DNA from: Microcoleus sp.
GTDB taxonomy: Bacteria > Cyanobacteriota > Cyanobacteriia > Cyanobacteriales > Microcoleaceae
Assembly (NCBI GenBank): GCA_042408215.1
Contig: JAYFMW010000029.1
Coordinates: 64,001-128,000, forward strand
Direction of reading: 5' to 3'
DNA length: 64,000 nucleotides
Part shown: positions 4,906-59,861 of the stretch, piece after piece
Position numbering within the stretch: position 1 is the first letter of the stretch
Layout of the letters: each line of letters starts with the position of its first letter
Notes under the pieces: generated by a model
Seen by the model: the letters and a program-made list of their open reading frames with translations, nothing else
Told to the model about the DNA's origin: nothing
Databases searched by the model: none
Position numbers and translations under genes: made by a program

Positions 4906-5421
4906 CTATTCGTCATTGCTTGGGTACTGATTTGCCTGAAAGTCAATTTGTAGTTGTTTCGGCAGTTGGTCTACTTGAAAATACCGATGAAATTTGTCGG
5001 TAACTTGTAGCCAATAAGAGCGACTCTCCTTTGGCCGCCGTTTGCGTACAAAACCGAGTTCGACCAGCTCTTGCACTTGCTGGTAAGCGCCGGAACCTCG
5101 CAAGTTAACTAAATCTGGCTGGGCGATACCTCCTTTGAGGGCGATCGCAGCTAGCGTCCGCAGAGCTCCAATACCTAATTCTGGAGGTATCAAAGTTTGC
5201 ATTAAACTGGCAAACTCTTCCCTCAGTTGCAGGCTGTATCCTGTGGGAGTTTCGACTACTTCTAAGGCACTGTCTCCCTGAGCAGAGTCAGACATCAGTT
5301 CGATCAGCGCGTCTTCAGCTTCGGATCGATCGCATTTAGCAAGGTCAGCAATCTCTGCTATTGAGACTGGCTGACCTTTTAGGTAAAGTATGGCTTCTAT
5401 TGTGGTTGCTAAGCGAGTCAT
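4906..5421 (-). CDS. scpB: SMC-Scp complex subunit ScpB
   Basis: IEAILY...ALRTLAAIA...LRGSGAY...VTDKF motifs. Confidence 0.92.
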
Positions 5422-5423
5422 TT

Positions 5424-5640
5424 GGGAATTGGGAATTGGGAATCGGGAATCGGGAATCGGGAATCGGGAATCGGGAATCGGGAATCGGGAATGGGGAATG
5501 GGGAATCGGGAATCGGGAATCGGGAATCGGGAATGGGGAATGGGGAATCGGGAATGGGGAATGGGGAATCGGGAATCGGGAATCGGGAATCGGGAATCGG
5601 GAATCGGGAATGGGGAATCGGGAATCGGGAATGGGGAATG
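5424..5640. repeat. STRR heptamer tract (GGGAATC/GGGAATG)n
   Basis: About 30 tandem 7-mers directly upstream of scpB. Confidence 0.95.
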
Positions 5641-5830
5641 GGTGTCAACTTAACGTCAAACGTAGTACCGGTCTGCTGTTTGACTATTAGGGTTCGATCC
5701 CCCCTAGCCCCCCTTAAGAAGGGGGGGACAGGAGTCTTCTCAAAGTCCCCCAACAATCAGGGGGATTTAGGGGGATCGAAACTTCGATATAAATGAGAGA
5801 GACAGAGGATTTCAGTCTTAAGTTGACACC
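5641..5830. mobile_element. MITE-like element with 13-bp terminal inverted repeats and an internal CCCCC...GGGGG palindromic repeat
   Basis: GGTGTCAACTTAA (5641-5653) / TTAAGTTGACACC (5818-5830); the internal repeat recurs at about 37292-37397. Confidence 0.7.
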
Positions 5831-8476: not shown

Positions 8477-9212
8477 AGCTGAAAGTAAAATTAAGTAAAG
8501 AACTCAGTTAAATAGCGATGCTTTGATTCCAATTGTAACTCTAAAACCACTTTGTATGAATCAAATTGAGTCAAGCTCCCCTGGATGGGGATCGTGGTGT
8601 CTAGAGCTAGGCAACTTTATTTACTTTATCTGTTTTTGCTAGCAAAAGTGTCACCATGCTAGCAGTCTTGAAAGAATTATATATAGTTAAGAACTGTAAC
8701 AAATTTGAGTCAAATACAACAAGACAGTAGAATTTAGTGGTAACGCTACCCCCCTTGAACTCAAAAAGTTCAACAGGAGATCCTGCTCCTTACCTTCCTA
8801 GGTTTTACCCCCTGATTGTCAATCGCGATCGCACCCCCAACAGTCCTCTTCGATCGTCTCCCCCCTTTGCACCCGCACACTGCCACCTCACCCTGTTTAT
8901 TTATACTTACCGATCTGAGTCTGGTTTGACTATAACCTAAGGCATAGGTGTTATGGTCGCGGTATCATAACCCACCAACTTTCTGTTCTTGTTGCCCAAT
9001 TGTATAGTGCTTTACAAATCTTGCTTGTGTCCTTTTTTGTCTTAAAGAATGCCCAGCGCGTGATGTTAACGGCAAGTTGTACAGCAGGATCAGCTTGCGA
9101 ATATCCACATTTTGCTGTATAGGCGGTGAAACTGTTTTCCAAATTCCTTGGGGCGATAGCGAAGGGACTAGAATTGCCAGGCCAGGGCTGATTTTGTATA
9201 ACTTATAACGAA

Positions 9213-9408
9213 TTGGGAATGGGGAATGGGGAATAGGGAATGGGGAATGGGGAATTGGTAATTGGGGAATGGGGAATTGGGAATGGGGAATTGGGAATTG
9301 GGAATGGGGAATTGGGAATAGGGAATAGGGAATGGGGAATGGGGAATTGGTAATTGGGGAATGGGGAATTGGGAATGGGGAATTGGGAATGGGGAATTGG
9401 GAATTGGG
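9213..9408. repeat. STRR heptamer tract (GGGAATT/GGGAATG/GGGAATA)n
   Basis: Tandem 7-mers. Confidence 0.95.
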
Positions 9409-9728
9409 AGCATTACACACCCAATTGAAAAGTGCTATATTAGCTGGAATTGCAATTGTAAATAAAAACGAACCCAGTTGCAGAAAATAAAAAAACCCGC
9501 TCTTTTAGAGTCGGGAATTGGGAATTATAGCCGAAGGCACTTATGCACTTATGCGCTCAGTAAAATGCAGTTCTTGAGCAATGGTGCCCGCCCGCCAGAA
9601 TGTGCTCATCGCCTTGCCAATTGCTTTACAAGCTTTGATCTTGGAACTTTGAGTTATGAGTCATGAGTGACAATTTAAACTTTATTACCTCACAATTCAT
9701 AACTCAAAACTCATAACCTTTACATCAA

Positions 9729-11579
9729 TCAACCCTTCTTCTGGGGTGGCAGCTTAGTTTTCCAATTGGCGATCGCCTTCTGAGCAGGTTGATAACTCTT
9801 GGTACCAGACGGCACCAGCGAAGCAGCTTGAACTGCCTCTTTCAGCCGGCCTTGAGAACTGCGTAACTGAGCAATCTTGAAAATAGTTTCGCTCCACTCT
9901 CCTATCAATCGCTGAGCTTCTTCATACTTCGGCTGACCGGACTTAATTTGATTAGCTTTCTGGATGCCCTTACTGTAAGAAGAGACATCGCCCCGCTTAA
10001 TTTGTGCCTTCGCAGCAGATAGCAGAGCCACATTGATCTGCTGTTCTTTGGATAGCTCCTTCCACTGTGCGATCGCCTCCTGAGACTGATTGTAAGCCGG
10101 CTTATTGAGATCAGGCATCAATTTAGCCGCCCCGATCGCCCCCTGGAAATCGCCCCGAGCCGCCCGCCCGTTAGCTATATCCAAAATCGTCAAACTCCAG
10201 CGATCTATATCCTGCTGAGCCTGCGGGTAAAGCGGATCGGTAGGCGGAATCGTTCGAGCCACTTCCACCGCTTTATTAAAACTCGAAGCCGAACCATCCT
10301 TGAGGAAAGTTTTCGCCTCAGCCCACACCTGCTGGCTCGACGGCTGCGGCTTGCTTTGGGTGCGGGCCGGTACAATCGTCGGGTTGTTCTGCGCTCTACT
10401 GGCACCAGCAGACCTTTGAGGCGGAGGATTCTGGGCCTTCTGGGCCCTCGTGGGAGGGTTTCCTTCCTGCTGGCCTACAAAAATTGACCGATTCGTCACA
10501 AACACACCCAACAACAGCACCAGAGCCGTAGCTCCGCTCCACAAAATTAGCTGCTGCAAAAATGACTTGTCCGACCCCACAGGCTCCAAATCCTCCGGCT
10601 TTTGCAAATTCGGTCGCTCCTCACCCCCGTCCGTCGGCCGGACTGTATTCGGTGCAGATACCTGACTCGGCATCTGGGCTGGCGATTCCTCAGAAGTACG
10701 AGCCGCCGCCGGCAACTCCTCTTTGACAAACAACTGAGCCGTCGCCGTGGCCATTTGCGGGCGATCGTACCCATTAATCTCGGCCCCAACCGCCACATTG
10801 CCGTTGCGTCCCGCCAACGCAGTAGTTGGCATCTCAGAGACATCCGGCAAAATCACCAAATGAGCTTTTCCCGGAGGATTCACCACCATCAAAGGTTCCT
10901 GTTTGGGACGCAAATGGTGGTCGCACAGCTCAGGCAGTCGATCGCTCAAAAAGCGGTCTAAACCCTTAACCGTCATGCACTGGCCCGATCGCAGCCCCTC
11001 CAAAAGCGCCGTCGTAAAAAACCCTTGGCGGAGAGCAGAAGTTTCCCGCGAAACTTGATTCGGGCGACAAGAAAGCAGCGTGGGAATTTCCAAATCCCGC
11101 GCCAACTGGGCCGTTTCCACCCCGATAGTTTCCCCCGCTTTCACGCTCTGGCTGCGGTTCATGTCAACCAGCACCAACACCGTTTCCGTAGGAGCATTTT
11201 TCAGAGTATTCAACAGCAACTGTACCGGAATCCCCGTACCCTGAATGTCCGCCGGATTACCATCCACCGGCATCAAATAATCCTTGCCTTCATAGCTGAC
11301 ACCGTAGCCACTAAAAAAACACCAGAGTACATCTCCTTGTTTCAGGTGTTCGGTACACAGAGTTTCCGTCAACCTCAGAATATTTTCCCGATTTGGATAA
11401 GTTGAGTGACCCCACAGCGACGGACTCGTATCCGTCATCAGTAGACATCCATCTGGCGAAAAACCAGCCTCCTCAACCAAAAAAGCGTACAGTCCCTCTG
11501 CATCCAATGCGGCATAACTCAAAGGCTGGAGTAACTGATATTGATTAATGCCTATGGCAATACAAGCGTGATGTTTCAT
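9729..11579 (-). CDS. membrane-anchored caspase-family (peptidase C14) pseudo-orthocaspase
   Basis: AIGINQY, FFSGYG (His to Tyr), LVDMNRS (Cys to Asn), one TM helix, C-terminal helical repeats (A+..I..W). Confidence 0.9.
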   Translation of the reverse strand: MKHHACIAIGINQYQLLQPLSYAALDAEGLYAFLVEEAGFSPDGCLLMTDTSPSLWGHSTYPNRENILRLTETLCTEHLKQGDVLWCFFSGYGVSYEGKDYLMPVDGNPADIQGTGIPVQLLLNTLKNAPTETVLVLVDMNRSQSVKAGETIGVETAQLARDLEIPTLLSCRPNQVSRETSALRQGFFTTALLEGLRSGQCMTVKGLDRFLSDRLPELCDHHLRPKQEPLMVVNPPGKAHLVILPDVSEMPTTALAGRNGNVAVGAEINGYDRPQMATATAQLFVKEELPAAARTSEESPAQMPSQVSAPNTVRPTDGGEERPNLQKPEDLEPVGSDKSFLQQLILWSGATALVLLLGVFVTNRSIFVGQQEGNPPTRAQKAQNPPPQRSAGASRAQNNPTIVPARTQSKPQPSSQQVWAEAKTFLKDGSASSFNKAVEVARTIPPTDPLYPQAQQDIDRWSLTILDIANGRAARGDFQGAIGAAKLMPDLNKPAYNQSQEAIAQWKELSKEQQINVALLSAAKAQIKRGDVSSYSKGIQKANQIKSGQPKYEEAQRLIGEWSETIFKIAQLRSSQGRLKEAVQAASLVPSGTKSYQPAQKAIANWKTKLPPQKKG

Positions 11580-12096
11580 AAAAAAATTCGGTAAGTGGGA
11601 AACTCAGTCACCAAGAGTGCTGAGAGGGAAACGGCAAGGCGGTTTCAACACTTCGACTTCGCGAGGGTGACCGCCGCCTTGAATCTTTCCATTACAGCGA
11701 TCGGGAATTGCTTAATGGGAGTGTACTTTTGTAATGTACTTTCAGTGGGACTCGGCGGAGTTGATCCGCTCGCGTAGCCGAAGGGCGAGCGTGCATCCCA
11801 ATTACCACTTCAAACTTCGCAATCCTGTACGCATAATGTTCGCTCCTTGCGGAGCCTCCCTTTCGGGGTAATGTTAGCTTGCCCCTTAGTTAACGGTCGG
11901 TACTATATCTAGGACACTGATTTAACTCAATAAGTCTGTTTAATCCTAGATTTCTAGAGCAGGGAACTAGCGAGAGCATTCCCTGGTAGGTCTTTAACTC
12001 TTACCGTTAACGTAGTACGCAGGGTACTGAGTCTGGTCAACTGCGATTTAAGTCTTAGGCTAGAAGCGAGCGTGTCTTTAGACCTGGGTCGTTGAC
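11580..12096 (-). mobile_element. non-autonomous IS200/IS605 element carrying a HEARO/omegaRNA, no iscB
   Basis: Minus strand GTCAAC...GTTGACCAGACTCAG...CTACGTT...GCTAGTTCCCTGCTCT...TTAAACAG...AAGCTAACATTACCCC; plus strand TCAT target, GAAA guide and CTCAG/CTGAG hairpin at one end, TGAC at the other. Confidence 0.85.
11860..12096 (-). ncRNA. HEARO / IscB omegaRNA scaffold
   Basis: Ordered HEARO hallmark motifs as above; 3' boundary approximate. Confidence 0.75.
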
Positions 12097-12713
12097 CGCC
12101 TTAAATACATAGTAAACAGCTTGCACAAAACGATAACACATCGCCGCTTCAGGTTAACCCCACACAGGTAGAAGTCAATCGATTTGAGATTTGAGATTTG
12201 AGATTTGAGATTTGAGAGGCGACCCCACGGCCTGTACCGTTCTCCGGTTGCTCGGAGCGGTAAATCAACCTAATTAAACCTAAAACGCTATAGCGATGCC
12301 GCTCCCCCACAAATGAAGGCGAATTCGGGGATCTGGGTGTTCTGTTTTTTGACGTTTTTTATTTCTGGACGGATGAATCCGGGGGCAAGAGACCCTATTG
12401 CTTTCGGTCACAACCAACCAAAAACTGAAAATGCCAGAATTTTTGAGATGGCAGTCAAAAAATCTGCCCTGTACCTTTGGAATAATCAGGTTAAATTAAA
12501 TACATAGGCCGGTCAATTGGCGATCGGAGTTGATCGGCTCAAAAGACCAACAATTGCCGGCAAGCAATAGTACCTTCCCCTTGGAGGAAGTGTTCAGTGG
12601 CTACCTTGCCAAAGTTTTCGTATTTGCAAAGACAGTACCTGCCTGACTATCCTAAAACTTTGCCATTTGACCTGAATTTTCAGCAAACTACACCAAAAAG
12701 GAGTAACCTAAAT

Positions 12714-13415
12714 ATGGTCTCTACCGCCAACAAAGAAATCTCCGTCCCAACCGACTCCCTCCTGAAACAAAAGTATCCTAAAAGTCATGCCCACTATAGG
12801 TTTCAGGACTTTTTTGTATTCGATCGCCAGATGGGGACCATTAACGACTGGAATGAGTCGCGCAACATTTTTACCAGCGAAGACTTCATTATCGGTTTGG
12901 TGGAGGGACTAGAAGAAGAAGTAGGCCCTGCTTCCTCAGTGATCATGTATACTATTGGTTGCCAGTGGGGAGTCCAAGATTCCGAATTTTTTCAAAAATG
13001 GTTTAGTGCCGAATTCGGTCAAAACATTCGCCAGTCAAATCTGATGTTTTTGCTAGAAACTTGGTGGTGGCCGTTCACAGCTCAAGGTTGGGGTCGCTGG
13101 CAAGTGGATATGAGCGATCGTAAACAAGGCTGCATCTTCATCAACCTCTTTGACTCAGCAGTTGCTCGCACATTAGGCGACGTTGGCAAACCCGTTTGTC
13201 ATCTTTACGCCGGTTTGTTCGCCGGTTTCTTTGGCTCTCTAGTCAAAAAACCTCTGAGCTGCATAGAACTCCAATGTTACTCAATGGGAGAAAGCTATTG
13301 CAAATTCCTGCTAGGAAACCCCGACAAAATTGATGCTGCTGCATTTTGGCTTAACGAAGGTGCCAACGCCCGCGACATTCAAAACCGACTGCAAAACGGT
13401 GAAATATTGCGGTAA
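12714..13415 (+). CDS. V4R-domain protein (Slr0144-like, Pap cluster)
   Basis: AGGAG RBS before ATG 12714; GWGRW, PVCHLYAG, CIELQC...C V4R motifs. Confidence 0.88.
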   Translation: MVSTANKEISVPTDSLLKQKYPKSHAHYRFQDFFVFDRQMGTINDWNESRNIFTSEDFIIGLVEGLEEEVGPASSVIMYTIGCQWGVQDSEFFQKWFSAEFGQNIRQSNLMFLLETWWWPFTAQGWGRWQVDMSDRKQGCIFINLFDSAVARTLGDVGKPVCHLYAGLFAGFFGSLVKKPLSCIELQCYSMGESYCKFLLGNPDKIDAAAFWLNEGANARDIQNRLQNGEILR

Positions 13416-13615
13416 ACAACCCACCGCTAAATCGAGATACCGATTTGGAATGCCACTCAAAATTTAGCTTGCATTCCCGTTGGAAAAAGTAAGGCAAGTT
13501 CTGCCTGATGTTAAGCCTGTGGATTGGTAGGAGCCGACTCCCCATTCGGGAAACAGGAAGTGAACGTTAGTTTACAATGAGTAGGTTTGAGTAAGTTTCA
13601 CAGAACGGAAGACAG

Positions 13616-13882
13616 ATGAAAATTCAAACTTCGTGGTTAGAGAAGTCTGTTCAAGACTTCTTTGGTCACTATAACTGGCTGGGAACACCTTTAGAAACCC
13701 CAAATGGCTCAGCCCCTGGTCAATTACTGACCTTAACCATGCCAGTAGCAGACTTTTTTCGGGCTATTTCTTGGGAAGGAATTCCCGAAGTAGGTGCCAT
13801 ACCCCCACCGCCGCCCTTGCCAGTAATTTCTGTTTATGAACCGGCCGAAGTCACTATTGACGACCTATTCGACCTGTTTTAA
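13616..13882 (+). CDS. small conserved protein of the V4R/Pap cluster
   Basis: Two internal (S/P)V.DFF...W repeats and acidic C-terminus; co-oriented within the cluster. Confidence 0.75.
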   Translation: MKIQTSWLEKSVQDFFGHYNWLGTPLETPNGSAPGQLLTLTMPVADFFRAISWEGIPEVGAIPPPPPLPVISVYEPAEVTIDDLFDLF

Positions 13883-13917
13883 GGCTTCTGGGGAATGGAA
13901 AATGACCAAGAGTTAAT

Positions 13918-14060
13918 ATTGGCAATTGGTAATTGGTTATTTGTTATTGGTTATTTGTTATTGGTTATTTGTTATTGGTGATTAGGAAAACAACTAACAA
14001 ATAACAACTGAGCGCTACCAACTGACAACTGCCAACTGCCAACTGCCAACTGCCAACTGA
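13918..14060. repeat. STRR-type heptamer tracts (TTATTTG/TTATTGG; CAACTGC)
   Basis: Tandem 7-mers in intergenic space. Confidence 0.85.
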
Positions 14061-14100
14061 CTTCCTTCGATCAATTACCGATTACCACTTAATTAAAATC

Positions 14101-14574
14101 ATGCACCCTGAGATTGAAGCACTTCTAGATCAGGCTGAAAATCGCTTTCTCAAAGCCGAAGAACTCACAGCCTTTAAGCGTCAAGCTGCCACCCTCTCCC
14201 AGCGATTAAAAATTTACGAATTCTTGCGAGAAAAGGAAGAAAGCATCTTTCAGCCAGTAGCCAACAAGCTACAAGAAACCTTCCCAGACGAACAACAAGA
14301 AACCCTCGAACGAGCGCTAAAACATTGGTTATTAGTCTTGCGCTACTGCGCTATGGCCATGCTGCTCAACGATCAAGCTTTTCTAGAACAGCGCCTCCTA
14401 GACTGGCTTTCCGGCATAGTTGAAGCCCACCAAACTCAAAAAATCGAAGCAACTATTTGCAATCTCCTGCAAACTCGTTTGAAAGAATTACTTTCAGAGC
14501 AAGCCAGGGCTATATTGCAACCATTTTTAGACCAAGCACAATCAATTATTATTGGTATAGGTCATCCAGAATAG
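14101..14574 (+). CDS. phycobiliprotein-like globin-fold protein
   Basis: AENRFLK.EEL...LRYCAMAMLLND...RLLDWL pattern of the phycobilisome-protein family. Confidence 0.8.
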   Translation: MHPEIEALLDQAENRFLKAEELTAFKRQAATLSQRLKIYEFLREKEESIFQPVANKLQETFPDEQQETLERALKHWLLVLRYCAMAMLLNDQAFLEQRLLDWLSGIVEAHQTQKIEATICNLLQTRLKELLSEQARAILQPFLDQAQSIIIGIGHPE

Positions 14575-14597
14575 GCAACAGGTAACAGATCTCAAAA

Positions 14598-14867
14598 AGT
14601 CAGTAGTCATTAGTCAGTAGTCATTAGTCAGTAGTCATTAGTCAGTAGTCAGTAGTCATTAGTCAGTAGTCATTAGTCAGTAGTCATTAGTCAGTAGTCA
14701 GTAGTCATTAGTCATTAGTTATTTGTTATTGGTTATTTGTTATTGGTTGCTTCCAATGCCCAATGCCCAATGCCCAATGCCCCATGCCCCATGCCCCATG
14801 CCCCATGCCCCATGCCCCATGCCCCATGCCCCATGCCCCATGCCCAATTCCCAATTCCCAATTCCCA
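14598..14867. repeat. STRR tracts (AGTCATT/AGTCAGT, TTATTGG, CCCCATG, CCCAATT)
   Basis: Four abutting heptamer families. Confidence 0.95.
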
Positions 14868-15530
14868 ATGATTAATATTGCCGACCTACTCAAACAGCCC
14901 CGCCTCCCAGGAAACTACTTTGCTAGCGATGCCTACGTGCGAGGCGACCTCGAACTCGGCTTGCTCGAAAATCGCCGGGGCGGGAGGCTCCTAGCACTTC
15001 CAGAAACACTGATTCAAGCCATTTACATCGGCTTAGAACAAGAAACCGGTCAAGCTTCCCACCTAGTGCTATTCAACTGCGGCCGCTGGTGGGGCAAAAA
15101 CTTCTACGTGCGTTTTTGCGAAGAAGTCAGCGAATACTACGGTCAGCCAGTTTCCGAAATGGAAATGGTAGAATTTATTCAGTGCCTACAACAGTGTTGG
15201 AAGACTCACGGATGGGGAACATTTGAACTTGACCCCAGCTATTCCTCACAGGGATTTTTAATAGTAAAAATTGCTAACTCTCTTTTTGCTAAAACAGCCC
15301 CTAAGTCGAAGCTACCAGCCTGTTTTCTAGAAGCAGGCATTTTAAGTTCGTTCTTTACTAAACTCACAGGTCGAGAACTCCACTGTCTACAAACATCCTG
15401 CGAATCCTTGGGTTCTGACTGTAACCGCTTTATTTTAGGGCTACGCGATCGCCTCCAACCAGCAGATTCTATGGTCGAAGAAGGACAAGAACACGAAACC
15501 ATTATCAGTCAACTTTGTCAAAAAAACTGA
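14868..15530 (+). CDS. V4R-domain protein (Slr0147-like)
   Basis: Start MINIADL at ATG 14868; [24 protein letters not shown] motifs. Confidence 0.88.
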
Positions 15531-41115: not shown

Positions 41116-41256
41116 CTGTAGGGGCGGGTTCGCCAACCATCTCAAAGCTTGCAGATAAGTTAAATAAACCCGCCCTCCCCCACTTGTAATATCTCGATCG
41201 GGGCGGGTTTATGAGATTTATTATTTGTATTTGAGACTGTTGGCGAACCCGCCCCT
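41116..41256. repeat. GTAG-type REP/REPIN-like double palindrome (IS110 target)
   Basis: CTGTAGGGGCGGGTTCGCCAAC ... GTTGGCGAACCCGCCCCT|ACAG (completed at 42821); inner pair ATAAACCCGCCC/GGGCGGGTTTAT; related copy at 42887-42950. Confidence 0.85.
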
Positions 41257-41300
41257 TGTATCTTAAAAGAGTGAGTCAGTCGATCGCCACGTCATTGATT

Positions 41301-41550
41301 CGATCATACCGACAATCAGGCGATCGTACCGACAATCAGGCGATCGAGCCGACAATCAGGCGATCGAGCCGACAATCAGGCGATCGAGCCGACAATCAGG
41401 CGATCGTACCGACAATCAGGCGATCGAGCCGACAATCAGGCGATCGAGCCGACAATCAGTCGATCAAGCCGACAATCAGTCGATCAAGCCGACAATCAGT
41501 CGATCAAGCCGACAATCAGTCGATCAAGCCGACAATCAGTCGATCGTACC
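41301..41550. repeat. tandem array of 12.5 x 20 bp inside the IS110 left end
   Basis: CGATC(G/A)(AG/TA)CCGACAATCAG(G/T) units with exact 20-bp period. Confidence 0.95.
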
Positions 41551-41599
41551 TTCTTCTTGGTAAATCTAAAGAAACAACAAAAGTTTCTAACTAAGGTGC

Positions 41600-48103: not shown

Positions 48104-49165
48104 CTACGCCAAAACAGGCACCGGTTGCGGCCAGCGACCCATTACTTTACCAATAACCGCCAATTCTCCCATCAACTTGTCGAACTGATCCGGTGTTAAA
48201 GATTGCGGCCCATCAGACAAAGCTTTTTTCGGATTCGGGTGCACTTCTATCATCAGGGAATCAGTACCAGAGGCGATCGCAGCAAACGCCATTGACGGTA
48301 CAAACTGAGCCCAACCGGTGCCGTGACTGGGGTCAACCATAATCGGTAAGTGAGTCAGAGTTCGCAATACTGGAACCGCCGACAAATCCAGCGTATTCCG
48401 CGTATACTGCCTGTCATACCCGCGAATTCCGCGCTCGCACAAAATCACGTTCGGATTGCCAGAAGCCATGATATACTCAGCAGCCATCAACCATTCTTCA
48501 ATGGTTGCGGAAATGCCGCGCTTCAGCAAAATCGGTTTGTCTTGAGCTCCGACTTTTTTCAACAGTGAGAAATTCTGCATATTTCTCGCCCCGACTTGAA
48601 CCACGTCGGCTACTTCCACGATCGCAGTTAAGTCCGCCGCATCCATAACTTCGGTGATAATTCCCAAACCGCTAGCTTCCCGCGCCGCAGCTAGCAATCC
48701 CAAAGCACTCTCGCCGTGGCCTTGGAAAGCGTAGGGGGAAGTTCTCGGTTTGTAGGCTCCACCGCGCAGAAAATGAGCACCAGCAGCTTTGACGCGCATT
48801 GCCGTTTCAACAATCATTTCTTCGTTTTCGACGGAGCAAGGCCCTGCTACGATCGCGATCGGGTGGTGCAGGCCGATCGTCACAGTTCCTAAAGGAGTAG
48901 CGACTGCTACGGCGCTGGGTTCACCTTGACGGTATTCCAGACAAGCGCGTTTGTAGGGCTTTTCCACTCGCAGCACTTCCTCAATCCAGGTGCTCATTTC
49001 GCGCAGTTGCATGGGTTCGAGCTCGGCGGTGTCGCCCACCAAACCCATGACTACTTTGTAACGCCCGACTATTTTTTCTGGTATCAAACCCCAGTTAGTG
49101 CGGAGATCTTCGTCTAGGCGATCGATTTCGGCTTCTGGAGTGCCGGCTTTCATTACAATAATCAT
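48104..49165 (-). CDS. aroF: 3-deoxy-7-phosphoheptulonate (DAHP) synthase, class I-beta
   Basis: MIIVMK regulatory domain, AGPCSVE, RGGAYKPRTSPY, GARNMQN, DPSHG. Confidence 0.96.
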   Translation of the reverse strand: MIIVMKAGTPEAEIDRLDEDLRTNWGLIPEKIVGRYKVVMGLVGDTAELEPMQLREMSTWIEEVLRVEKPYKRACLEYRQGEPSAVAVATPLGTVTIGLHHPIAIVAGPCSVENEEMIVETAMRVKAAGAHFLRGGAYKPRTSPYAFQGHGESALGLLAAAREASGLGIITEVMDAADLTAIVEVADVVQVGARNMQNFSLLKKVGAQDKPILLKRGISATIEEWLMAAEYIMASGNPNVILCERGIRGYDRQYTRNTLDLSAVPVLRTLTHLPIMVDPSHGTGWAQFVPSMAFAAIASGTDSLMIEVHPNPKKALSDGPQSLTPDQFDKLMGELAVIGKVMGRWPQPVPVLA

Positions 49166-49571
49166 CAGAAAAATGGGTAGAAACCCCGTCTTTTTAGGAC
49201 GGCTTTACAGTTTTAGCGCTACTGCCTTGGGGTTGCTGGACTTGGTGTACTTTTGTAATGTACTTTCGACGGGACACTTACCGTCTCAAGTTTGACAACC
49301 CTGTACACATAGCGTTTTGCACGGGTTGTGCCTCCCTTACGGGGTAATGTTAGCTTCGACCTGTTACAAGAGTTTTTTAGGCTTGCAACACTGTTCCAGT
49401 GACCTTAGAACTGTTTAATCACAAGCGACAGAGCGGGGGACTAGCTACGCATCCGCCCGGTGTCGTGACTCAAATAACGTTTACCCAACGATCGCGTTGC
49501 GGTGGTCTGGTCAGGATGGCTTGCTAGATTTCTCTTACAAGCCTCATGCCGTCAGGGCTGAGGTTCCTGAC
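49166..49571 (-). mobile_element. non-autonomous IS200/IS605 element carrying a HEARO/omegaRNA, no iscB
   Basis: Minus strand GTCAGGA...TCCTGACCAGACC...ACGTT...GGATGC..GCTAGTCCCCCGCTCT...TTAAACAG...GTCGAAGCTAACATTACCCC; plus strand TCAT target, GAAA guide and hairpin; CAAG guide, hairpin and TGAC end. Confidence 0.88.
49335..49571 (-). ncRNA. HEARO / IscB omegaRNA scaffold
   Basis: Ordered HEARO hallmark motifs; 3' boundary approximate. Confidence 0.78.
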
Positions 49572-59283: not shown

Positions 59284-59861
59284 TTTAAGATAATGTCATT
59301 CAGGGAATAGGATTTTTTTGAACCGCAGAGGCCGCAGAGGGCGCAGAGAGAGAAAGAAAGTTCTGGAGGGATTGACAACGTAATTATGTCATTCTGAGTG
59401 AAGCGAAGAATCTCAAAATCTTGGAACACCATGACTATCCGTAAGTCTTATTTAAGATAATGTCATTCAGGGAATAGGATTTTTTTGAACCGCAGAGGCC
59501 GCAGAGGGCGCAGAGAGAGAAAGAAAGTTCTGGAGGGATTGACAACGTAATTATGTCATTCTGAGTGAAGCGAAGAATCTCAAAATCTTGGAACACCATG
59601 ACTATGCGTAAGTCTTATTTAAGATAATGTCATTCAGGGAATAGGATTTTTTTGAACCGCAGAGGCCGCAGAGGGCGCAGAGAGAGAAAGAAAGTTCTGG
59701 AGGGATTGACAACGTAATTATGTCATTCTGAGTGAAGCGAAGAATCTCAAAATCTTGGAACACCATGACTATGCGTAAGTCTTATTTAAGATAATGTCAT
59801 TCATGGAATAAGATTTTTTTGAACCGCAGAGGGCGCAGAGGGCGCAGAGAGAGAAAGAAAG
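59284..59861. repeat. 167-bp tandem repeat, about 3.5 near-identical copies
   Basis: TTTAAGATAATGTCATTC at 59284, 59451, 59618 and 59785. Confidence 0.95.

Follow-up and report, generated by a model that had tools for sequence, protein, structure and literature searches.

How does a stretch of mobile DNA that encodes no protein come to end exactly at the start codon of an intact host gene? The question is raised by a 517-nt element beside a caspase-like gene in the 64,000-nt stretch of Microcoleus DNA analysed here (the window). A preliminary description had placed a HEARO scaffold, a cargo, an end hairpin and ATGA in this order, with ATG as the host start, and its boundaries (11580-12096) are confirmed (Table 1). 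The covariance search that it called for returned RF02033 at 115.8 bits against a cut-off of 83 bits. Position 1 of the model coincides with the first base of the element, of which the initial 229 nt are covered. At the opposite end, the ATG of the 616-aa ORF adjoins the last base of the element without a gap, and the Peptidase_C14 match in this ORF begins at residue 5 and model position 3. IscB is the ancestor of Cas9. No iscB gene is found inside the element, no ORF exceeds 60 aa within its 517 nt, and tblastn with cargo segments of sister copies gave no support to the cargo as an iscB remnant, which identifies the element as a protein-less derivative. The two hairpins at 11842-11867 probably represent the 3´ end of the omegaRNA, as judged from the modelled fold. 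Similar hairpins trail most HEARO matches among those listed, and RF02033 is without downstream elements according to passages of Meers et al. (bioRxiv 10.1101/2023.03.14.532601). The second element in the window carries the same cargo domain with a B-type left end. A DAHP synthase gene (48104-49165) begins directly at its end, and the DAHP_snth_FXD (Pfam) match in this gene runs from residue 1 and model position 1. Elsewhere in the window, two V4R-domain genes and a phycobilisome-domain gene (12597-15530) are divergent from the caspase-domain gene, and tandem repeat arrays with 7-, 20- and 167-nt units are located at 5367-5706, 9158-9443, 14570-14890, 41236-41590 and 59284-59861.

Table 1. 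Positions of the element, its parts and its neighbours in the window.
Feature	Position	Strand	Remarks
Whole ISC (IS200/IS605, IscB-type) element, protein-less, 517 nt	11580..12096	-	Exact empty allele in G005; no target duplication
OmegaRNA scaffold, Rfam HEARO RF02033	11868..12096	-	115.8 bits; model 1-211, the full model
Transposon right end: DNA guide GAAG 12063-12066, degenerate hairpin, cleavage site TGAC 12093-12096	12063..12096	+	
Two small GNRA-loop hairpins, 3´ of the Rfam model	11842..11867	-	Fold
Conserved structured cargo domain, in the place of iscB of full-length copies	11691..11837	-	
Transposon left end: linker, DNA guide GAAA 11599-11602, subterminal hairpin 11603-11624	11580..11624	+	
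Target TCAT (ATGA on the - strand): TnpA target, presumed IscB TAM, host start codon	11576..11579	+	
Host leader, putative guide source	12097..12112	-	Same sequence in the empty allele
Intact host gene of 616 aa with a caspase-like Peptidase_C14 domain	9729..11579	-	
Second element in the window, 406 nt, HEARO 49344-49571	49166..49571	-	133 bits

The short cargo of the preliminary description does lie between the scaffold and the end hairpin; it is not mere filler, and a conserved covarying structure was found there instead. The non-coding segment occurs in about 20 copies of this genome, joined to either of two end types. Its fold comprises 28 pairs in 16 copies (15 distinct), 13 of them with compensatory change. 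In total, 95.9% of the cells are paired, a value reached by none of 500 shuffles and compared with 32-44% for slid partners; these statistics overstate the support, as the copies share ancestry and themselves served to derive the structure. On the omegaRNA strand, G-U pairs greatly exceed A-C mismatches, which suggests that the structure forms on the transcribed strand rather than on the strand read by TnpA. The domain has no match in Rfam and is a candidate structured RNA outside the Rfam families. In this copy, a 48-nt insertion occupies a cargo loop (11753-11800). This insertion and a second short one, also in a hairpin loop, at about 11650-11675 are different in, or missing from, the copy of a relative (G008); we take both to resemble the small dispersed repeats of cyanobacteria.

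Forty relatives were searched for the element flanks and the host gene, which is present with the same N-terminus in all 24 same-genus genomes. The flanks are contiguous in G005 (query 1-604, then 1122-1701), where the empty allele reads ...CTATGTATTTAAGGCG followed directly by ATGAAACAT, exactly as predicted. The element was therefore inserted precisely next to a fixed tetranucleotide without target duplication. No element end is present at the ATG in 22 of the 24 genomes (75 nt examined), so the DNA is not native, and the reading that orthologues keep it as an untranslated region is ruled out by the empty alleles. G008 carries the same element at the ATG of the caspase gene with small indels, and G009 has, at this ATG, a different remnant some 120 nt long. 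Short left-end remnants without an omegaRNA were observed at start codons both at this G009 locus (L012) and at C6:923549 of the present genome (G000, to which all unprefixed contig positions refer). Decay of the elements seems to start from the right end. Records of known name that share the end motif are mostly from Microcoleus.

The ends of the element follow a known rule of target choice. In the parts of the IS608 literature consulted (PMC5934647; PMC3201880), AAAG pairs with TTAC and GAAT with TCAA, and GAAA:TCAT of this element is in the same register. As in IS608 of Helicobacter pylori, a four-base DNA guide is located at the foot of the hairpin; unlike this element, IS608 is autonomous, TnpB-type and directed to TTAC, with the cleavage site 19 nt from the hairpin foot rather than 23 nt (PMC3201880, PMC5934647). 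The preliminary description had extended the rule to GAAA:TCAT, and the left-end guide indeed predicts the target tetranucleotide at 125 of 138 scorable B-type ends of this genome (13 exceptions; 10 of 148 ends not scorable): AAAG:TTAC at 50, AAAA:TTAT at 33, CAAG:TGAC at 19, GAAA:TCAT at 18 and GAAG:TCAC at 5. The junction pattern used for these ends favoured targets of this general form and not any particular target. One IS200/IS605 end family in this genome, with several DNA guides and matching targets, forms a natural retargeting series that includes the 50 IS608-like AAAG:TTAC copies. Among the matches listed, ATGA follows the end motif of this element at 108 of 108 loci. The hairpin beside tnpA at C17:183019 is nearly identical to that of the left end here. 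On the - strand, the left end puts a U-run without a Shine-Dalgarno match in place of the translation-initiation region of the gene; an element-supplied Shine-Dalgarno sequence was looked for and is absent from this end type.

The right end differs. Its DNA guide is GAAG against the cleavage site TGAC, both here and in G008, compared with CAAG in most copies. Across 64 HEARO matches, GTCA is paired with CTTG in 40 and with CTTC in 3, this copy included, and the right-end pairing of 18 was not resolved by the pattern. The mismatch reads as decay of this copy and not as the mark of another family. Because of it, the copy may be stranded or excise poorly.

Several further end types were observed. 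Elements at C28:196132-196605, C30:230698-231182, C30:557026-557465 and C4:3521-4000 carry an omegaRNA and a third type of left end; in at least two of this type, a complete B-type end is followed by a further end before ATGA, as stacked ends. The 5´ terminus differs (GCTA, GACT), and an ATGA end was not found, for the HEARO matches at C3:172214, C5:414672, C5:441871, C21:57733, C6:6662, C30:110370, C7:93727 and C14:56949.

The position before a start codon is shared by about two thirds of the family. Forty-eight omegaRNA elements with both ends defined were excised, after two inner ends of nested copies and one end pairing in doubt had been dropped, and genes were called again with a simple custom dicodon caller that misses some small genes. 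The junctions comprise 31 starts, 15 intergenic sites and 2 sites in coding sequence. Twenty-nine of the 31 are exact and two lie within 45 nt of the called start; the caspase-gene locus is among the latter, the caller having set its start 30 nt upstream in the excised genome. ATGA opens 2190 of 6379 called genes, and 2563 of 15946 non-coding ATGA sites (16%) are starts. Compared with this null, 31/48 gives p ~1e-14, which bears out the enrichment that the preliminary description had proposed to count. Outside coding sequence, 43 of 46 copies are co-oriented with the next gene. Among the matches listed, 49 of 62 unique sites mapped onto this genome are starts there, a mapping that favours genes. 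The host genes at start codons are functionally unrelated; presumably they include rpsP, fusA, petL, petM, chlB, pntA and cobH. They are rarely operon-internal (2/72 vs 278/1901; p 0.001, and 0.044 once overlapping genes are set aside). Strong -10 boxes at 12-20 nt upstream are also rare (1/63 vs 115/1302, p 0.037, one of five bins), with p 0.08 at 21-30 nt and three other bins flat. No extended sequence preference around the target is visible in 31 sites. ATAA and GTAA ends show no attraction to gene 5´ ends, and none of six GTGA-target ends, a small set of unclassified content, lies at a called start.

Whether the ATGA target suffices for this pattern was addressed with TnpB-type elements on the same target. 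Opening of a coding frame was scored by a frame of at least 60 codons with a coding score of at least 10, internal methionines also being counted, against the null of 16%. A coding frame is opened by 40 of the 61 ATGA elements of this genome that bear an omegaRNA, compared with 2 of its 16 TnpB-type ATGA elements (Fisher p 1.7e-4), and one of these two looks like an internal methionine. A second set consisted of 100 of 118 pattern matches (without 16 close to contig starts and 2 from G091) and 108 listed loci, counted by unique site; these come mostly from relatives, which are not independent, and a few copies of this genome are common to both sets. Among the matches listed, 47 of 66 omegaRNA/iscB sites open a coding frame (four with too little DNA dropped) compared with 3 of 33 tnpA/tnpB sites (p 2e-9), and the latter fraction does not depart from the 16% null (p 0.35). 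Unclassified ends gave 11/57 for the control type (one dropped) and 15/21 for the type of this element among the matches listed, some of the 21 loci being too short to reveal an omegaRNA. A second control pattern yielded only 3 loci outside this genome; none opens a coding frame, and they were not pooled. At L163 (G020:C132), a control-type element contains a sequence just upstream of its left end, which we take to resemble the 3´ end of a group II intron.

The control elements have left ends that are similar and not identical to those of the omegaRNA elements, many are younger, and a common transposase is not established. Size is not the cause of the contrast. Seven protein-less copies with a right end of the TnpB type, as read from the sequence, are about 390 nt long, and none of them opens a coding frame (3 sense, 4 antisense). 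Age is probably not the whole cause either: 6 of 12 full-length copies of a young IscB family open a coding frame and 11 of 12 are co-oriented, and eight of the 12 are 93-96% identical to a sister. In a family of full-length IscB elements, the left end carries, about 7 nt before ATGA, a G-rich stretch resembling a Shine-Dalgarno sequence in place of the U-run seen here (C17:708317, C5:297882, C10:171009 and other sites). TnpB-type elements with the same target thus stand at the null rate, and the ATGA target alone is insufficient for the pattern. Of the proposal that the element is hard-wired to land before ATGA, the target itself is real; it does not by itself account for landing at start codons, given 2/16 and 3/33 for the TnpB type.

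The geometry of the junction would suit an RNA guide. In the empty site, the host leader at 12097-12112 is followed directly by ATGA, the presumed TAM, and the guide length is assumed to be 16 nt; such a guide needs a transcription start at least 16 nt upstream, and its actual length would depend on that start. A 4-of-6 match to a -10-like hexamer ends 12 nt before the junction, and this weak box, if used, would leave a guide of only about 6 nt. No match of at least 10 nt to guide plus ATGA was found in the genome itself, as regards self-targeting. An internal promoter was rejected, as a scan gave 2 sites compared with 1.6 expected by chance, and no terminator was found. Fourteen RNA runs contain 0.23-0.68 of the sampled words, which has no bearing on transcription of the element.

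Candidate helpers are encoded in the same genome. It contains 70 HEARO matches (64 above the cut-off); Y1 transposases are matched 20 times, and iscB, as a gene or a fragment, occurs about two dozen times. A related hairpin and ATGA form the end of three tnpA/tnpB elements, two of which have an uninterrupted tnpA (C13:77171 and C30:360795); the Y1 TnpA proteins of these two are candidate helpers in trans by sequence. An IscB of 423 aa, with RRXRR and HNH domains, is encoded at C3:407065 in an element whose left end is of the type seen here, and a second candidate helper IscB at C8:38348. The scaffold of this copy has 74-79% local identity to IscB elements with other left ends, aligns with same-end IscB elements at the 3´ end only, and has at most 68% identity to any paralogue tested.

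In passages of Meers et al. (10.1101/2023.03.14.532601), excision outpaces insertion, TnpB and IscB cut the empty site to restore the element, and IscB guides need transcription from outside, which TnpB guides do not. We favour, with a probability of roughly 0.6, a non-autonomous IscB-type IS200/IS605 element served by helpers in trans, for which parking at start codons is a survival filter and not the result of aiming. A Y1 TnpA from an IS605 element elsewhere would excise the element and reinsert it 5´ of any ATGA by GAAA:TCAT pairing, blind to genes; the pairing rule is seen by covariation, and the activity of TnpA is inferred. Excision would be scarless and faster than insertion, and a copy would last only if IscB-omegaRNA cut the empty site and recombination restored the element, a step published elsewhere and assumed here by analogy. 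The guide lies outside the element, so transcription from a host promoter would be needed. Usable sites, with a transcript in the right sense and an unbroken frame, would be leaders, among which ATGA start codons would be the most numerous; copies would therefore be found chiefly there. The host gene would then be expressed from a structured leader about 520 nt longer, whose last bases replace the native initiation region. The contrast with TnpB-type copies fits such retention, since these could persist anywhere harmless and omegaRNA copies mainly where a host transcript enters. The rarity of operon-internal hosts and of -10 boxes 12-20 nt upstream are weaker signs that agree with it.

Purging could in principle produce a similar picture: ATGA is the commonest gene start, beginning 2190/6379 called genes, insertions elsewhere would be purged or harmless, and only 2/48 copies lie in coding sequence. 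This account by target motif and purifying selection predicts about 16% at starts, which fits the TnpB-type elements only (2/16, and 3/33 among the matches listed), in contrast to 66-71% of the omegaRNA elements (the upper value among the matches listed), and we regard it as very improbable. Integration might alternatively be steered to promoter-proximal ssDNA or initiation regions, either because a different TnpA acts or because RNA or IscB assists. At nine start codons, another genome has an element of a different lineage, compared with about 0.7 expected by a rough count; the sequence is short or degraded in three of these cases. Such recurrence would follow from an insertion bias, and conversion between copies could explain some of it. 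The passages of Meers et al. also leave undecided whether their orientation bias was generated at insertion or retained afterwards. The absence of extended sequence preference around the site and the unbiased controls with a nearly identical left-end hairpin both weigh against steering, and we think it unlikely.

Retention might also act through the host, if the left end became an initiation region or regulatory leader and copies at starts were kept or decayed from the far end. The 15/21 ends without a detectable omegaRNA or transposon gene that open a frame among the matches listed, the G009 remnant kept at the caspase-gene ATG and the cargo structure conserved on the mRNA strand are in keeping with this proposal; its appeal is reduced by precise excision, which returns the native leader, and by the empty site in 22/24 relatives. 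Moreover, element leaders are no better than native leaders (n=31) in Shine-Dalgarno pairing (medians -2.2 vs -2.7 kcal/mol) or accessibility (0.48 vs 0.52), and the hosts are functionally unrelated. Retention by the host is improbable as the main cause, and it can operate alongside the survival filter. A bolder scheme, which we think rather unlikely, would see a genome-wide set of about 45 protein-less homing cassettes in host leaders, with a few IscBs in trans that cut empty alleles and produce recurrence at hot-spot genes. The guides would be copies of the initiation regions of strongly transcribed genes, and empty alleles would be cut on the sister chromosome or on incoming DNA, which would drive every cassette at its start codon. 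In place of iscB there would be a dedicated structured RNA domain, the cargo, serving to free the guide RNA and keep the mRNA translatable.

The survival filter builds on systems that are partly described. In the parts consulted, ISC1-1_MA of Microcystis aeruginosa (Kapitonov, Makarova, Koonin 2016, PMC4810608) likewise has a 5´-GTCA terminus, an N|ATGA target and no duplication, and ISC elements of that study likewise have a left end in common with IS605 elements whose tnpB is oppositely oriented; unlike them, this element has no iscB. The main text of PMC4810608 does not contain the term 'start codon'. The Geobacillus IscB omegaRNA/HEARO elements and omegaRNA-bearing PATEs in passages of Meers et al. 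resemble the present family in the right-end scaffold, the guide outside the element, transcription from outside, the TTCAT motif, donor-joint cleavage and retention, and protein-less copies served in trans. Those passages report co-orientation with the upstream gene; start-codon placement, a same-target TnpB control and a cargo domain were not found in them. Term searches of PMC13565253, PMC9755519 and PMC12873609 gave nothing on start-codon placement, and no statement of it was found in the literature searched. Already published are the class of element, its N|ATGA target (PMC4810608) and guide formation by read-through (10.1101/2023.03.14.532601); the same-target TnpB control and the cargo domain are what the present analysis adds.

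The same-target control addresses the question, posed by Meers et al., of whether IscB elements are preferentially inserted at, or retained at, transcribed sites. In this organism, a selfish RNA-guided element replaces the initiation regions of dozens of unrelated host genes and leaves the genes unbroken. The start-codon sites differ between close relatives, which makes them a source of expression variation that annotation misses.
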